Under the pieces are notes generated by a model. It worked only from the letters and a program-made list of their open reading frames with translations. It did no database searches and was not told the DNA's origin. The translations under genes were made by a program, and so were the position numbers. Shown one piece after another: positions 2,006 to 37,196 of a stretch of 64,000 nucleotides of DNA (position 1 is its first letter; each line of letters begins with the position of its first letter). The DNA is taken from positions 20,179 to 84,178 of the forward strand of contig SVAN01000001.1 of assembly GCA_015059375.1 (NCBI GenBank), read 5' to 3'. Source of the stretch: Bacillota bacterium (GTDB taxonomy: Bacteria; Bacillota_I; Bacilli_A; RF39; UBA660).

Positions 2006-2107
2006 TTTATGTCCTCCTATATCTGTTAAATTATATAAATTTTTTTTTAGAATATTCCTAGGTGTAATTGGAAATTCAAAAAAATTATTAAAAAAGTTGT
2101 GATAAAA

Positions 2108-2136
2108 AAAAGGAAATTGACCATCTACTAGGTAAT
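2108..2136 (+). promoter_or_regulatory. sigma-A-like promoter for the exporter operon
   Basis: TTGACC, 17 nt, TAGTAT, about 25 nt upstream of the GAAGGGAGG RBS of the 2163 CDS. Confidence 0.35.
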
Positions 2137-2162
2137 ATATAGTATGAAGGGAGGAAATAGAC

Positions 2163-4217
2163 ATGAGAAAGAAAATGGTTATTGTTAAGCAACAAGATGC
2201 TAGAGATTGTGGCCCATGCGCGTTAAAATCTTTTATAGAATATTATGGAGGCTACGTTTCTTTAGAAAAAATTAGAGAACATGCGTATACTGACATAAAT
2301 GGTACGAGTGTGTATCATCTAATAAAAGCCGCACAAAAATATGGTTTTGATGCAATTGCAAAAAAATATCTAGATAATCAAATAAACGATATTCAATGTC
2401 CGGCTATAGTTCACGTTCGGTATGAAAATGGGCAAACACATTTTATGTGTTTATATAAAATAATGAAAGATAGTGTTCTTTTGATGGATCCAGCTAAAGG
2501 AAAAGTTGTTTTATGTAAAGATCAGTTTATAAAAATCTTTACTGGAGTTGTAATTGAGCTTTCATTAAAAAATGAGATTATAATTTTAGAGAAAGAAAGT
2601 AATATTTATAATTTATTCCTTAATATAATAAGAAAAAATAAAAAGTTATGTGTATCTGTGCTGTTAACTAGTGTTGTGTTAGCTATACTGACTATTTTCT
2701 CGGGATTTTATTTTAAAGTAATTTATGAATACATTCAAACCGGGGGTTATATAAACTCAATAAAATACCTAATTTATCTTTTTCTAATTATAACTATATT
2801 TAAAGTATTGTTTGAATTCATAAGAAATAATTATGAAAACCATCTCAATAAAAATATAGATATAAGTATTCTAAGGACTTTTATATCCCATGTTTTTAAT
2901 CTCCCTTTAAAGGTTATTAATAAAAGACCAATAGGTGAAATTTTTTCAAGAATCAACGAGATAAGTAGTATTAAAGAAATTTTTAGTCAAATATTTATTA
3001 CTTGTTTCTTAGATTTGATTTTATCTTTTGGTTCAGTTCTATTACTATTTTATATAAATAAAGATTTAGCTTTGATACTCTGTTTGACAATGCTTATTTA
3101 TGTAATTATGTCATTGGTTTTTAACCCTTATTTATATAGGAGAATAAGACAAAATATCGATTACCAAACTGAAAACAATTCTTTTTTGATAGATAGTTTA
3201 AATATGATAAATAGCATTAAAAATTTAAATAAAACTTCTATTGCATTAGAAAAAATTGAGCAGAAAATGTGTGTGCTACTTTATGATAATTTTACTTTTG
3301 CAAATAACTTAAATGTTTTTGAATTTTTTAGAAATTTTTTTAATGAAACTGGAGTATTTATTATAAATACTTATGGTTTTTATCTTATTTTTACTAATCG
3401 CTTTTCTCTAGTTGATTTAGTTATTTTTAACACTTTGCTGAGCTTCTTTGTGGATCCTATAAAGAAAATTATTGCATTAATTCCTAAATATAATTTTTTA
3501 CGAGCATCGTTTAGAAAAATATGTGATTTTGTTGATTTGGAAGAAGAAAAACTAGGTGTTTTAGAACATTTTAATAATGGTGATATATGTTTTAGAAATG
3601 TTGAATTTTCATATAATGACTATTCAAAAATAATTAGGAAGTTTAATTTGACCATTAAGTCTGGAGAAAAAGTAATGCTTAAAGGGCAAAGTGGATGTGG
3701 TAAAAGCACTTTATGTCAATTATTACAAAGGGTTTATCTGCCTACAAGTGGATTTATTCAAGTTGGTAATAAAAATATTTTAGATTATAGTTTGTTAACT
3801 TTGCGAAATCACATTATATATGTAGGTCAAAAGGAAAACCTATACACCGATACAATTAGTAATAATATTACTTTTTGGCAAGATGATTGCAAAGATTTTG
3901 ATAAAGTATGCAATATTTGTTTAATTAATGATATTGTTGATAAGAAAAAATTTAGATATGATTTTGGTATTGATAACAATTTTGCTAATATTTCGGGCGG
4001 TGAAAAGCAAAGAATTATATTGGCAAGAGCGCTTTTGCGGGGAGGTGATATCTTGATTTTAGATGAAGCATTAAGCGAACTAGATTTTAAATCTGAAGAA
4101 AAAATTATTAACAATATAAAGCGAGAATATCCTGAAAAAACATTAATCTATATTTCTCACAAAAATCATGATCGATTATTTAATCGAATTATAACATTAA
4201 GGAATAATAATGAATAA
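2163..4217 (+). CDS. peptidase-C39-domain ABC transporter (bacteriocin/peptide exporter of the ComA/LagD/SunT type)
   Basis: N-terminal C39 motifs are present: QQDARDCGPCAL (catalytic Cys) and …GQTHFMCLYKIM…LMDPAKG (His/Asp). A six-TM core follows. The C-terminal ABC domain has Walker A GQSGCGKST, signature ISGGEKQRI and Walker B ILILDEA. Confidence 0.9.
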   Translation: MRKKMVIVKQQDARDCGPCALKSFIEYYGGYVSLEKIREHAYTDINGTSVYHLIKAAQKYGFDAIAKKYLDNQINDIQCPAIVHVRYENGQTHFMCLYKIMKDSVLLMDPAKGKVVLCKDQFIKIFTGVVIELSLKNEIIILEKESNIYNLFLNIIRKNKKLCVSVLLTSVVLAILTIFSGFYFKVIYEYIQTGGYINSIKYLIYLFLIITIFKVLFEFIRNNYENHLNKNIDISILRTFISHVFNLPLKVINKRPIGEIFSRINEISSIKEIFSQIFITCFLDLILSFGSVLLLFYINKDLALILCLTMLIYVIMSLVFNPYLYRRIRQNIDYQTENNSFLIDSLNMINSIKNLNKTSIALEKIEQKMCVLLYDNFTFANNLNVFEFFRNFFNETGVFIINTYGFYLIFTNRFSLVDLVIFNTLLSFFVDPIKKIIALIPKYNFLRASFRKICDFVDLEEEKLGVLEHFNNGDICFRNVEFSYNDYSKIIRKFNLTIKSGEKVMLKGQSGCGKSTLCQLLQRVYLPTSGFIQVGNKNILDYSLLTLRNHIIYVGQKENLYTDTISNNITFWQDDCKDFDKVCNICLINDIVDKKKFRYDFGIDNNFANISGGEKQRIILARALLRGGDILILDEALSELDFKSEEKIINNIKREYPEKTLIYISHKNHDRLFNRIITLRNNNE

Positions 4218-4605
4218 CTATGATTTCCTTTTAAAAATAAAAACATCAAATTCCATCCTTTATATTGTTATTTTAATTATATTGTTATTAGTGTTTGTTT
4301 TGATGTTTGTGATATACACGTATAGTTCTTATCATACTATGGGAATATATAATGATGGTTTAATTGTAAGTGTTCCTTTAAAAAACTCTGACGTAGTAAT
4401 CAAAGGAAATTATTTAATGATTGAGAACCGTAACTATGAGTATGAAGTGTTAGAAATCTCTGATATTCAGGCAGAAAATTATATTAATTATCAAGATTTG
4501 CGTATTAACATAAATGAGAAGTTTAAGGAAAATCAAGTGGTAGAAATAACCTTTTATTACAATAAACAGAGATTGATAAAAAAAATAGTACAATTTATTT
4601 TTTAG
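4210..4605 (+). CDS. small single-TM membrane protein, translationally coupled to the exporter; candidate accessory/secretion or immunity protein
   Basis: Start overlaps the exporter stop (ATGA-type coupling). One N-terminal TM (ILYIVILIILLLVFVLMFVIY) and an ~90 aa extracytoplasmic domain. Position matches HlyD/LcnD-type accessory or immunity genes in bacteriocin loci, but it is much shorter than canonical HlyD. Confidence 0.35.
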   Translation: MNNYDFLLKIKTSNSILYIVILIILLLVFVLMFVIYTYSSYHTMGIYNDGLIVSVPLKNSDVVIKGNYLMIENRNYEYEVLEISDIQAENYINYQDLRININEKFKENQVVEITFYYNKQRLIKKIVQFIF

Positions 4606-4617
4606 AAAGGAGAGTTA

Positions 4618-4767
4618 ATGGTTATACTTAAAGATAATGATACAATAAATTACTGTGGTGGAGCAAAAATTTCGGGTGGAATTGCTCTTTTTATTGCTGC
4701 AATTGGTTCGTTTATTTTAGGGATAATTGATGGCATAAGTAATCCCAAAGCCTGCAATTCAAAATGA
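4618..4767 (+). CDS. double-glycine-leader bacteriocin-like prepeptide A (49 aa), not in ORF track
   Basis: AAAGGAGAG RBS precedes the ATG. MVILKDNDTINYCGG|AKISGGIALFIAAIGSFILGIIDGISNPKACNSK*: the leader ends in GG with hydrophobics at -4, -12 and -15 and an acidic residue at -8. The mature part is amphipathic with GxxxG-like motifs (GSFILG, GIIDG). It lies directly downstream of the C39 exporter. Confidence 0.5.
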   Translation: MVILKDNDTINYCGGAKISGGIALFIAAIGSFILGIIDGISNPKACNSK

Positions 4768-4771
4768 GCAT

Positions 4772-4930
4772 ATGGTGTTAAGTAGAGAGGAAACTATAGC
4801 ATATGTTGGTGGTGGTAAGCTGACCGCAGCGCTTTTATCAGCGGCAACATCGTTAGTAAAATCATTATATGAAATGGGCCAAAATTTAGGATCAACAATT
4901 CGAAGAATTTTTTCCGGTAATTATTGTTAA
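4772..4930 (+). CDS. double-glycine-leader bacteriocin-like prepeptide B (52 aa), not in ORF track
   Basis: MVLSREETIAYVGG|GKLTAALLSAATSLVKSLYEMGQNLGSTIRRIFSGNYC*: the leader fits the LSxEE…GG consensus and shares T-I-x-Y-x-G-G with peptide A. The mature part has small-xxx-small motifs (AALLS, SAATS). It starts 4 nt after peptide A's stop. Confidence 0.5.
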   Translation: MVLSREETIAYVGGGKLTAALLSAATSLVKSLYEMGQNLGSTIRRIFSGNYC

Positions 4931-4951: not shown

Positions 4952-4986
4952 TTGTCAAAAAAACAAGCAAGTGTTATAATATTCCT
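4952..4986 (+). promoter_or_regulatory. sigma-A promoter for rpsU-yqeY
   Basis: TTGTCA, ~17-18 nt, TGtTATAAT (extended -10), then GAAGGGAGGG RBS before the rpsU ATG. Confidence 0.45.
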
Positions 4987-5928: not shown

Positions 5929-7069
5929 TTTTCTATATTTAAAAATTGAAGGTTATTCTTCGCAGAAAATTATTCAGAAGTTAACAGGAATCAATGTTAG
6001 CGTTTTTGATGTTCAAGAAAATGATAACATAGTGTATGTTAAAATTTTAGCAAATGATATTGAAAAAATTCAAAAGTATTTAAGAATGCTTGAATTTAAA
6101 AAAGTTAAATATACGGGTAAAGAATATTTTAAAAAAACGTTTAAAAGATATCGCATTTTGTTCATAGGAATGATTTTATCTTTTGCGTTTGTCGCTTTTG
6201 CATCAAATATTATAGTGGACATTGATGTGATTCACGAAGATGAAAATCTGGTGACATTAGTACTTGATGAACTTAATCAACACGGGATAAAGAAATTTGG
6301 CTTTCGCAAAGATTATCAACAACTAGAAATTATTAAAGATGAGATTAAAAATAAGCATTTAGATAAAATTGATTGGTTGGAAATTAATAAGGTAGGCATG
6401 CGATATGTTGTGCGTATTGAAGAAAGAATTCTTACGAAAAAGGAAAATATTAAAGAATATTGTCATTTATATTCAACGAAAGATGCGTTAATAACTAAAG
6501 TCAAGGTTTTTAATGGCGAAGCCGTTATTAATATTAATGATTATGTCAAACAGGGAACTTTGCTAGTTAGTGGCGATATAAAATTAAATGAAGAAATAGT
6601 TAATCAAGTGTGTGCAAGTGGTAGTGTTTATGCTGAAGTTTGGTACGATGTAAATCTTAAAATCCCTTTGGATTATTATGAAGAAACACCAACAGGAAAA
6701 GAGCGGAATAACCTAATTATTAATTATGATGGTGTTGATCATCAAATATTTAAAGATCGTCTTAAAAGTTATCAAGAAAAAAGAAAACTGATTTTTGATT
6801 TATTAGGTGTAAAAATTTATTTAAAAAAAGAAGAAGAGGTTATTAAAAAACTAAAAACATACACGGAAAAAGAAGCTATTGAAAAGGCTATTAAATTAGC
6901 TACAGAAAAAGTGGAAATAAAATTAAAAGATTCAGATAAAATTATAAGTCAAAAAATTTTGCAAAATACTATAATTGATAGTACAATGGATATAGATATA
7001 TTTATAGTAGCAGAGGAAGAAATTTCTAAGCAAGTTGTGACAAGAAAGGATGCAGAAAATGGTTTATGA
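5921..7069 (+). CDS. yqfD: sporulation protein YqfD (stage IV sporulation-like)
   Basis: 382 aa with a soluble N-terminal domain, a single central TM (RILFIGMILSFAFVAFASNIIV) and a large C-terminal domain. Size, topology and synteny with yqfC/ybeY match YqfD. Confidence 0.65.
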   Translation: MNSFLYLKIEGYSSQKIIQKLTGINVSVFDVQENDNIVYVKILANDIEKIQKYLRMLEFKKVKYTGKEYFKKTFKRYRILFIGMILSFAFVAFASNIIVDIDVIHEDENLVTLVLDELNQHGIKKFGFRKDYQQLEIIKDEIKNKHLDKIDWLEINKVGMRYVVRIEERILTKKENIKEYCHLYSTKDALITKVKVFNGEAVININDYVKQGTLLVSGDIKLNEEIVNQVCASGSVYAEVWYDVNLKIPLDYYEETPTGKERNNLIINYDGVDHQIFKDRLKSYQEKRKLIFDLLGVKIYLKKEEEVIKKLKTYTEKEAIEKAIKLATEKVEIKLKDSDKIISQKILQNTIIDSTMDIDIFIVAEEEISKQVVTRKDAENGL

Positions 7070-7676
7070 TTTATTTAAAAGTAGCTTAATTACAATGTGG
7101 CCTTCTTTAGTTATTGTTACCGTTACATTAATAACAATCCGTTTTGCGTATTTAAAAAATCAACGTGGCCCATTTTCTTTTTATCGTGAGTTTTGGACAT
7201 TAATATCAGTTGTTTATATGTTACTTTTATATCAAATGGTGACCAGGGTAGATATAAATGCTTCAAGTGGAATTAATTTAGTGCCATTTACAGAAATCCT
7301 TCGTTATGATGTTCATAGCGAGCTATTCTTCTATAATGTTGTTGGAAACATTGCGTTATTTATGCCTTTTGGCTTTATTGTATCTGCTTATGTTAAACCA
7401 CGAAAAATTTGGACTAATTTGTTTGTGGCTTTAATTGTAAGTGGAACCATTGAGATTGTACAATTAAATATTGGACGAAGTTTTGATATTGATGATATTA
7501 TTTTAAATACCTTAGGATGTATTATAGGCTTTTTAGGTTATGTAGGTTTTAAGGCAATAATTAAACATTTACCTAATTTTTTAAAAAGTGACTGGTTTAA
7601 TAATCTAATTTGTATTATAATAACTATCTGTATATTTTTATACGTTTTAAATATTATGGGGATTGCGTTTAGATGA
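7050..7676 (+). CDS. VanZ-family membrane protein
   Basis: Polytopic; …VPFTEIL…NVVGNIALFMPFGF… and …SFDIDDIILNTLGCIIGFLGY fit the VanZ-like fold signature. Confidence 0.5.
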   Translation: MQKMVYDLFKSSLITMWPSLVIVTVTLITIRFAYLKNQRGPFSFYREFWTLISVVYMLLLYQMVTRVDINASSGINLVPFTEILRYDVHSELFFYNVVGNIALFMPFGFIVSAYVKPRKIWTNLFVALIVSGTIEIVQLNIGRSFDIDDIILNTLGCIIGFLGYVGFKAIIKHLPNFLKSDWFNNLICIIITICIFLYVLNIMGIAFR

Positions 7677-36671: not shown

Positions 36672-37196
36672 ATGAATAAGTTGTCGAAAATCTTATTAGC
36701 AATTATTTTGGGTCTACTTATATTAATGCTATTAATAATAAGCAGTAAAGATAGTTCAAATAAACCAGTTGATTATGATATATCGATGATGAGAGAAGTA
36801 ACAGTTCATGATGTTTTGGAAATGTTTTCTAGCAAAGAAACATATGTATTGTATGTTGGGCGTAAAAGCTGTAGTGTTTGTGTTAAAATACTACCTGCTT
36901 TGAAAGAAGCTCAGATAAAAAATAACTATATAACTCAATATTTAGATATTGAAAAAGTTGATCGAACTTCAGATGAATGGTATGAATTAAAAGCTAAATT
37001 AACGATGAAATCAACACAAACATTGACGGAAGATGGCAGTGGGGAAGAGATTACTGAAACATATGGGTATTTCCTTCATGAATATGGCTTTACACCAACG
37101 GTAATGGTTATTAAAAATGGCAAGCAAGTAGCAGGTCTTATTGGCGGTGCCGAAAAAAATCTCTTGGTAGACTGGTTAAGCAATAAAGTAAATTAA
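36672..37196 (+). CDS. membrane-anchored thioredoxin-family protein with intact CxxC (CSVC), bacteriocin-transport-accessory/thiol-disulfide oxidoreductase-like (paralog 2)
   Basis: N-terminal TM; …YVLYVGRKSCSVCVKILP… with cis-Pro context …TPTVMVIKNG…. Confidence 0.5.
   Translation: MNKLSKILLAIILGLLILMLLIISSKDSSNKPVDYDISMMREVTVHDVLEMFSSKETYVLYVGRKSCSVCVKILPALKEAQIKNNYITQYLDIEKVDRTSDEWYELKAKLTMKSTQTLTEDGSGEEITETYGYFLHEYGFTPTVMVIKNGKQVAGLIGGAEKNLLVDWLSNKVN

Follow-up and report, generated by a model that had tools for sequence, protein, structure and literature searches.

A conserved exporter and peptide-pair cassette upstream of rpsU in uncultured gut Bacilli: a possible class IIb-like two-peptide bacteriocin

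Class IIb bacteriocins are defined by an immunity gene in the same operon as two peptide genes; their double-glycine leaders, 15–30 residues in length, are removed by a dedicated ATP-binding cassette (ABC) transporter, and all of the characterized members carry GxxxG-type (or AxxxA / SxxxS) motifs (PMC2850506). Experiments have shown that leader positions −4, −7, −8 and −12 drive recognition by the peptidase-containing ABC transporter (PCAT) (PMC7018657). In the Cdz system of Caulobacter crescentus, also built from two small peptides, the peptides can remain on the surface of the producer (PMC5380434). Here we describe a four-gene cassette (positions 2163–4930, + strand) in a 64-kb stretch of DNA (the window) from contig SVAN01000001.1 of a Bacillota bacterium; it encodes a PCAT, an accessory protein of 131 amino acids (aa) and two prepeptides, A and B. 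From the sequence we infer, with a probability of roughly 0.55, that the cassette exports A and B as a paired heterodimer acting like a class IIb two-peptide bacteriocin; leader cleavage, export, the disulphide and the target are all part of this inference. Uncultured, partly sporulating orders related to Mycoplasmatales have been described (PMC10868615); the relatives of the cassette found here lie in uncultured Bacilli, and their named records, together with the sporulation genes, suggest that the host may be a member of those orders.

The four genes are tightly packed. The PCAT gene (2163..4217, + strand) encodes 684 aa with C39 peptidase, transmembrane and nucleotide-binding domains, and its stop is overlapped by 8 nt by the start of the accessory gene (4210..4605, + strand; 131 aa), whose product we call the ‘mini-MFP’ after the membrane fusion proteins (MFPs). 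Prepeptide A (4618..4767, + strand; 49 aa) is preceded by a strong Shine–Dalgarno sequence, AAAGGAGAG at 4606–4614. Prepeptide B (4772..4930, + strand; 52 aa) begins 4 nt past the stop of A and has no Shine–Dalgarno sequence of its own; it is probably translationally coupled to A, which is compatible with 1:1 production of both peptides. The translations of both open reading frames (ORFs) were re-derived and agree with the preliminary description of this DNA.

Judged by its sequence, the product of 2163–4217 is a PCAT that falls outside the curated NCBIfam subfamilies. Pfam identifies Peptidase_C39 (PF03412, E = 3e-32), ABC_membrane (PF00664, E = 1e-27) and ABC_tran (PF00005, E = 2.8e-25), and residues 2–667 align with PCAT1 (PDB: 4ry2, E = 1e-90) as well as with ComA (E = 4e-77). 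In the peptidase domain, Q10, C16, H93 and D109 are present and aligned with the residues of PCAT1, and the ATPase portion contains the Walker A (GQSGCGKST), signature (ISGGE) and Walker B (ILILDEA) motifs. The scores against TIGR01193 (368.2 bits, cut-off 523.85) and NF045998 (330.8 bits, cut-off 500) are below the curated thresholds. The PCAT ORF is intact in 19 of 19 loci, each with the Q...DCG motif. Both A and B are double-glycine prepeptides placed as likely substrates of this adjacent transporter.

Prepeptide A consists of MVILKDNDTINYCGG (leader, 4618–4662) followed by AKISGG...ACNSK (predicted mature peptide, 4663–4764, 34 aa), and prepeptide B of MVLSREETIAYVGG (leader, 4772–4813) followed by GKLT...NYC (predicted mature peptide, 4814–4927, 38 aa). 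With a GG-leader pattern written after A and B were known, a six-frame scan of the window retrieved two of 278 small ORFs (30–90 aa), A and B themselves, and a mean of 0 over 50 shuffles of the sequence. In comparisons with four to five orthologues, in which synonymous sites are nearly saturated, the ratio of non-synonymous to synonymous substitution rates (dN/dS) is 0.09–0.28 for A and 0.07–0.27 for B. Both are protein-coding genes under purifying selection, and gene callers report A on 16 and B on 21 independent metagenome contigs. The two mature peptides had been described as amphipathic. This holds for B, with a hydrophobic moment up to 0.68, a net charge of +3 and the motif GSTIRR; A is instead hydrophobic and transmembrane-like, with a grand average of hydropathy (GRAVY) of 0.93 and a net charge of +2. 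AlphaFold2 predicts B as a single long helix (residues 15–48).

Searches with mature A and B in Pfam, NCBIfam, PDB sequence profiles and, by tblastn, plasmids gave no meaningful match; a match to NKR-5-3B (E = 0.41) was rejected as noise, and a literature search for the peptide motifs found no paper. A 55-aa form of A occurs in public data (P0001), in which the stop codon has become Trp and a six-residue read-through (…NSKWTYGVK) enters the start region of B; it is represented by a cluster of three member sequences, with one 610-nt contig on record.

The leaders of A (15 residues) and B (14 residues) both end in GG and share Tyr at −4, Thr–Ile at −7/−6, an acidic residue (Asp or Glu) at −8 and Leu at −12, exactly as first described. 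The hydrophobic periodicity at −4/−7/−12/−15 that had also been claimed applies in part: position −7 is polar (Thr in the window, Ser or Ala in its close orthologues), and it is −6 that is hydrophobic. Leaders of the B family are canonical, with Leu/Ile at −12 in 109 of 126 members, Glu at −8 in 100, Leu/Met at −7 in 104 and Ile/Val at −4 in 106, and a length of 12–15 residues in 107 of 124. Distant B relatives have Leu/Met at −7; in the subclade of the window this position has drifted. Taken as a whole, the B family has double-glycine leaders as defined by the positions of PMC7018657.

A second GG in A (AKISGG) had made the cleavage site of this peptide appear ambiguous. Among 20 close A sequences, G15 of the first GG is kept in 20 and G14 in 19; the second GG is not kept, orthologues reading TTG, TAG, SIG or TLG at that place. 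Since the second GG varies and the first is near-invariant, cleavage after G15 in A and G14 in B is the sole conserved option, which disposes of the ambiguity. The leader cysteine of A (Cys13) is likewise not kept, being Ser, Thr, Ala or Val in orthologues. Profile–profile comparison aligns residues 3–23 of A with residues 2–22 of B (95% probability, E = 2.5e-8), and the match extends 8 residues beyond the cleavage site, where recognition by the peptidase would require no similarity. The match past the cleavage site gives moderate support to a shared origin of the two leaders, and to that extent to the duplication of a leader cassette that was suggested earlier.

Helix-packing motifs had been noted in both peptides, and a conserved GxxxG-type motif is indeed found in each, S31xxxG35xxxG39 in A and G36xxxG40 in B. 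The segment of A previously named as GxxxG-like, GSFILG, is in fact G-x4-G, and the motif of B (G36-Q-N-L-G40), its best-conserved feature and invariant in 20 close pairs, had been missed. GxxxG is present in 122 of 126 B-family peptides and G-x3-G/A in 36 of 37 A peptides. The motif starts at mature residue 17–20 in A and 20–24 in B, that is, in the same register; in the window it lies at about residue 20 of A and about residue 22 of B.

Each mature peptide has one cysteine, Cys46 in A and the C-terminal Cys52 in B. Exactly one mature cysteine, 0–3 residues from the C-terminus, occurs in 107 of 126 B peptides, and the mature cysteine counts of A and B are (1,1) in 32 of 37 pairs. In the only two A peptides that lack the residue the B partner also departs from the usual count, having none (L057) or two (L022); the probability of this by chance is 6/666 = 0.009, a value that ignores phylogeny. 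Because the cysteines co-vary and the motifs share a register, we propose a disulphide-linked, parallel A–B heterodimer, in which A and B would probably be joined through their C-terminal cysteines. A literature search for two-peptide bacteriocins with an intermolecular disulphide returned three papers, each of which uses both terms once, outside title and abstract. The pair in L057 (2501–2787) is the sole one with both peptides cysteine-less: the tail of A is rich in Lys/Arg (PLKTLKKRK) and B ends early (RKLLKK). It resembles a natural double cysteine-less variant and could be used as a control for the disulphide idea.

The single cysteines had also been tentatively connected to a CxxC protein encoded at 36672, a suggestion for which we find no evidence; the ORF lies 32 kb away, among translation genes. 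This ORF (36672–37196, 174 aa), situated between frr and a SpoU methylase gene, has an N-terminal membrane/signal anchor and a thioredoxin-like Cys-Ser-Val-Cys motif, and no Pfam match at E ≤ 1e-3. On these features it could be an extracytoplasmic thiol-disulphide oxidoreductase; a tie to the cassette was rejected, there being no linkage.

The 131-aa accessory protein has an N-terminal transmembrane helix (residues 14–34), an extracytoplasmic β domain and a short C-terminal helix; its AlphaFold2 model, built from a family of 17 proteins, has a predicted local distance difference test score (pLDDT) of 86.9. The membrane anchor and, in the predicted fold, the extracytoplasmic β-barrel resemble those of membrane fusion proteins. 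The α-hairpin and lipoyl elements of the HlyD family are missing from this protein of just 131 aa: the model has no coiled-coil hairpin, no HlyD or Biotin_lipoyl match was found in Pfam/NCBIfam at E ≤ 1, and Foldseek returned no match at E ≤ 1e-3. LcnD/ComB-type accessory proteins are roughly 450 aa long, compared with about 130 aa here. The MAG1140 model (126 positions) matches 6 of 16 family members end to end, the window protein among them (best E = 8.8e-8). The window protein itself scores 18.2 bits (E = 0.0022) against a cut-off of 35, re-scanned relatives are also below it and distant members mostly give no match, all of which indicates distant similarity only. We read the protein as a minimal MFP-like exporter subunit and not as an obvious immunity protein, and we note that accessory proteins may add to immunity in class IIb systems (PMC2850506).

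The proposed mechanism can be set out as follows. A and B would be translated from one transcript, B being coupled to A. The C39 peptidase domain would bind the leaders and cut after Gly15 of A and Gly14 of B, giving mature products of 34 aa (3361 Da) and 38 aa (4036 Da) that would be exported through PCAT with the aid of the small, membrane-anchored MFP-like protein. Parallel packing of the two helices, one hydrophobic (A) and the other amphipathic and cationic (B), would involve their G-x3-G motifs, and a disulphide between the C-terminal cysteines would give a heterodimer of about 7395 Da. This heterodimer would insert into membranes, and its targets may be competitors in the gut, as in class IIb systems.

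The loci compared in this work are those found via B homologues, via the accessory-protein alignment or via a metagenome scan seeded with the SpoIIIAH-like protein. Close homologues of B are 55–77% identical, and their contigs show the same four genes in the same place, the shared order being a SpoIIIAH–GerE–GerM block, the cassette and rpsU–yqeY–yabP–yqfD. In every one of 37 related loci the gene for B comes immediately after that for A, with gaps of 1–9 nt or an overlap where the junction was read base by base. Orthologues of A were taken from the DNA beside B, as a word search with A returned only the 55-aa read-through variant; the word index probably holds few or no proteins shorter than 50 aa, because known A orthologues of 47–49 aa were not returned. 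A profile of B run against 1.84 billion cluster representatives gave 163 matches at E ≤ 1e-3, nearly all of 48–70 aa. Neither Pfam nor NCBIfam has an annotation for this B family of about 160 clusters, which is characterized by a short GG leader, a near-invariant GxxxG and one cysteine at or near the C-terminus. None of 10 distant relatives of B carried a cluster name. Members of the wider family match models of class II bacteriocins weakly (TIGR03949 in 32 of 126, lactococcin G alpha/beta, TIGR01847 and PF10439), matches that are probably leader-driven.

Scanning the GTDB species representatives with the accessory-protein alignment identified 12 species, all with PCAT, the accessory protein, A and B. 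They are metagenome-assembled genomes of uncultured Bacilli (goat, rabbit and Hadza human gut), ‘Bacillales bacterium UBA6448’ and two Mycoplasma sp. records, and most have the same synteny. A genome scan with the B motif [MIF]GQNLG[ST]TI gave no match, because relatives read GQNFGSTL, GQDIGYTF and similar; broad B alignments were too diverse to serve as queries for pattern-based metagenome scanning. The SpoIIIAH-seeded scan added about 15 further pairs from human, ruminant, squirrel and sloth guts, and in many of the relatives it showed the SpoIIIAH block not to be beside rpsU. The cassette itself is directly upstream of rpsU wherever rpsU is visible, the one exception among the loci read being L031, in which yabP follows B. 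Of two distant B-family members that were traced, L038 keeps the full synteny. In the other, L042 (23.6% GC), the genes upstream are different (CvpA, thioredoxin, PrsA), but PCAT is still followed by a 126-aa protein, A, B and rpsU.

Two of the divergent loci have further features. In L042, a gene for CvpA (colicin V production) and one for an 89-aa thioredoxin with WCGPC (1968–2946) lie about 1.5 kb upstream of the PCAT cassette, and a 45-aa, cysteine-rich transmembrane ORF directly precedes PCAT; the proximity of CvpA and thioredoxin may be coincidental, both being common housekeeping genes. One divergent lineage (L036, 8289–8981; also L021, 994–1101) has a third double-glycine peptide, MEKIKNNELLEYEGG followed by TILNILTHILISVISLKIVFRKVAK, ahead of A and B, and in the L036 lineage a 67-aa ORF with a single transmembrane segment lies between B and rpsU.

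On the opposite strand upstream of the cassette are genes for SpoIIIAH-like, GerE and GerM proteins. The SpoIIIAH-like ORF (1514–2164, − strand) is over-extended to 216 aa in the mechanical ORF list, so that it seems to abut the start of PCAT; relatives and a ribosome-binding site (GGAGGA, 7 nt, ATG) place its true start at 2005 (163 aa), and the divergent intergenic region is 157 nt long. This region contains a promoter-like element and ribosome-binding site (2104..2157, + strand), laid out as an A-tract with AAGGAAAT (2110–2117), a 13-nt spacer, GGTAATATATAG (2131–2142) and GAAGGGAGGAAA (2146–2157), ahead of the ATG at 2163. The boxes are kept in 13 loci, the rest of the intergenic region is not: across the 13 the order is A-tract with AAGGAAAT, a spacer of 12–13 nt, GGTATATATA (of which GGTAATATATAG is the version in the window) and the ribosome-binding site. 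The element presumably acts as the promoter of the operon. Its AGGAAAT −35-like box is close to the sigma-H consensus; the −10-like box is a clean match to neither the sigma-H nor the sigma-A type.

Measured against the class IIb definition, with which the preliminary description had linked the two peptides, the picture is mixed. The adjacent gene pair is present (A and B are 4 nt apart in the window, and all 37 loci have them side by side), and both peptides carry the GxxxG-type motifs given above. GG leaders accompany an adjacent PCAT with intact catalytic residues that is predicted to remove them; they are 15 residues long in A and 14 in B, the latter one residue below the published range. 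An immunity gene was not found. In the window, the four-gene operon is followed by no further plausible ORF on either strand before rpsU, and the related loci that were read have no extra ORF by B except the 67-aa ORF of L036 and a 45-aa ORF in L116 that overlaps the end of B. The idea that A is the immunity protein for B was rejected, as A bears a conserved GG export leader.

The missing immunity gene is the first of several points that weigh against a bacteriocin. Mature A and B have no sequence similarity to a characterized bacteriocin, a Pfam/NCBIfam mature-peptide family, a solved structure or a plasmid gene. The window leaders are short (14–15 aa versus 15–30 aa in PMC2850506) and polar at −7, and the cysteine covariation amounts to two evolutionary events. 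Identity to the window is 34–69% for the cassette proteins and 33–100% for the flanking proteins; divergence of the cassette tracks that of the flanking genes, which suggests that it is vertically inherited. The synteny is kept in 12 GTDB species and many metagenome lineages, under purifying selection. Bacteriocin loci are typically strain-variable and often horizontally acquired.

In the main alternative, A and B would be exported for the benefit of the cell that makes them, for example with a role in envelope physiology, in sporulation or stationary phase or in contact with the host, and would not be a weapon. We consider this a possible explanation, if a rather unlikely one. It would explain why no immunity gene is needed, none being present in any locus, and why inheritance of the cassette resembles that of a core gene. 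In its favour are a PCAT that is intact in 19 of 19 loci, the low dN/dS and the presence of rpsU as immediate downstream neighbour in almost all loci that show both, the 23.6% GC relative included. Two features of the neighbourhood point the same way: a promoter-like element unlike that of sigma-A, with its AGGAAAT box, precedes the operon, and in many relatives the divergent neighbours are the sporulation genes (SpoIIIAH-like, GerE, GerM). However, the cassette has no linked gene for a sensor, a receptor or another partner, and cationic peptides that combine a transmembrane-like with an amphipathic helix and GxxxG motifs have the chemistry of a pore-forming two-peptide bacteriocin. An immunity gene may also be dispensable, if the accessory protein is protective (PMC2850506) or the producer has no receptor. 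A more specific version, which we regard as doubtful, is that the cassette is an ancient, vertically inherited core function of Mycoplasmatales-related gut Bacilli, which may be the orders RFN20, RF39 or ML615J-28. Held next to rpsU, it would make an immunity-free disulphide heterodimer from a dedicated and possibly alternative-sigma promoter, for the surface or membrane biology of the producer or its dealings with the host and not for killing.

The remaining alternatives are much less likely than a pair that serves its producer. It is improbable that each peptide is a one-peptide (class IId-like) bacteriocin in its own right, with only the exporter in common: many PCAT loci do hold several unrelated GG peptides, and L036 has a third, but the A–B order is fixed in 37 of 37 loci, B has no ribosome-binding site of its own, the G-x3-G motifs are in register and the cysteines co-vary between partners. 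It is more improbable still that A, B or both act as quorum-sensing pheromones of the ComC/BlpC/PlnA type. ComC-type peptides share the kind of leader and exporter, and 8 of 126 B-family members match PF03047 weakly, but such matches are probably leader-driven, none of the loci has a histidine kinase or response regulator next to the cassette, and mature peptides of 34–38 aa, with a transmembrane-like helix in A, are unlike soluble pheromones. Chance ORFs in AT-rich DNA, which the shortness of A and B and their want of a database family might suggest, are effectively refuted by dN/dS values of 0.07–0.28 at saturated synonymous sites, by frames, GG, GxxxG and cysteines kept down to about 35% identity, by the strong Shine–Dalgarno sequence before A and by shuffles that give a mean of 0 matching ORFs.

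If the A–B heterodimer is antimicrobial, it would represent a new and widespread family of two-peptide bacteriocins from abundant, never-cultured gut bacteria of humans, ruminants, rabbits and other vertebrates, and one that is unusual for its class in its apparent inter-peptide disulphide, its minimal MFP-like accessory protein and its lack of an immunity gene. If it is not, the cassette would provide a little-understood lineage with a secreted pair of peptides that is conserved, which would be the more interesting outcome. In either case the approximately 160 B-type clusters and their A partners could become family models for Pfam/NCBIfam.

Downstream, the 3′ boundary of the cassette is the rpsU promoter (4952..4980, + strand), of sigma-70 type (TTGTCA-17-TGnTATAAT) with 11 of 12 consensus matches and with TG; its sequence is kept in L011 and L014, and no terminator was found between B and rpsU. 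Further downstream, a VanZ-like gene (7050–7676) lies between yqfD and ybeY and is kept there in all of the relatives with contigs that reach so far. In Bacillus subtilis this position is occupied by phoH. VanZ proteins are linked to tolerance of glycopeptides and lipopeptides.

Among known exporters, those closest to the PCAT of the window are PCAT1 of Clostridium thermocellum (4ry2) and ComA of Streptococcus pneumoniae (8hf4-7), with which it shares a full-length alignment and the catalytic and ATPase motifs. Unlike these, it lies under all of the NCBIfam PCAT subfamily cut-offs and is paired with a very short accessory protein. A second point of comparison is the mycoplasma pair Mbov_0121 (the PCAT of NF045998) and MAG1140 (NF045999). 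Mbov_0121 is the second-best NCBIfam model for the window PCAT, and the relatives of the cassette are in uncultured Bacilli, some deposited as ‘Mycoplasma sp.’; in contrast, the window proteins are below both curated cut-offs and most members of the accessory-protein family have no match to MAG1140. A name search found no published account of the function of the Mbov_0121/MAG1140 pair; two papers mention Mbov_0121, each of them once.

The Cdz system resembles the cassette in having two small glycine-zipper peptides, type I export (ABC protein and adaptor) and joint action on membranes (PMC5380434). It differs in belonging to a Gram-negative organism, in the size of its peptides (84–86 aa) and their amyloid-like aggregation, and in its essential immunity gene cdzI; it is often horizontally acquired, and its peptides have no sequence relation to A or B (PMC5380434). 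The class IIb bacteriocins lactococcin G, plantaricin EF/JK and enterocin 1071 share with the cassette two small cationic peptides encoded by adjacent genes of one operon, GG leaders, a dedicated peptidase–ABC exporter with an accessory protein, a GxxxG-type motif in each peptide and mature peptides of 30–40 aa that are helical and membrane-seeking, the helicity being predicted in our case. Here, unlike in class IIb systems, there is no immunity gene, the mature regions are without sequence similarity to theirs and the accessory protein is shorter; the cassette is further set apart by a strictly conserved C-terminal cysteine in each peptide, co-varying between partners, and by a fixed position directly upstream of rpsU across the clade, with no strain variation.

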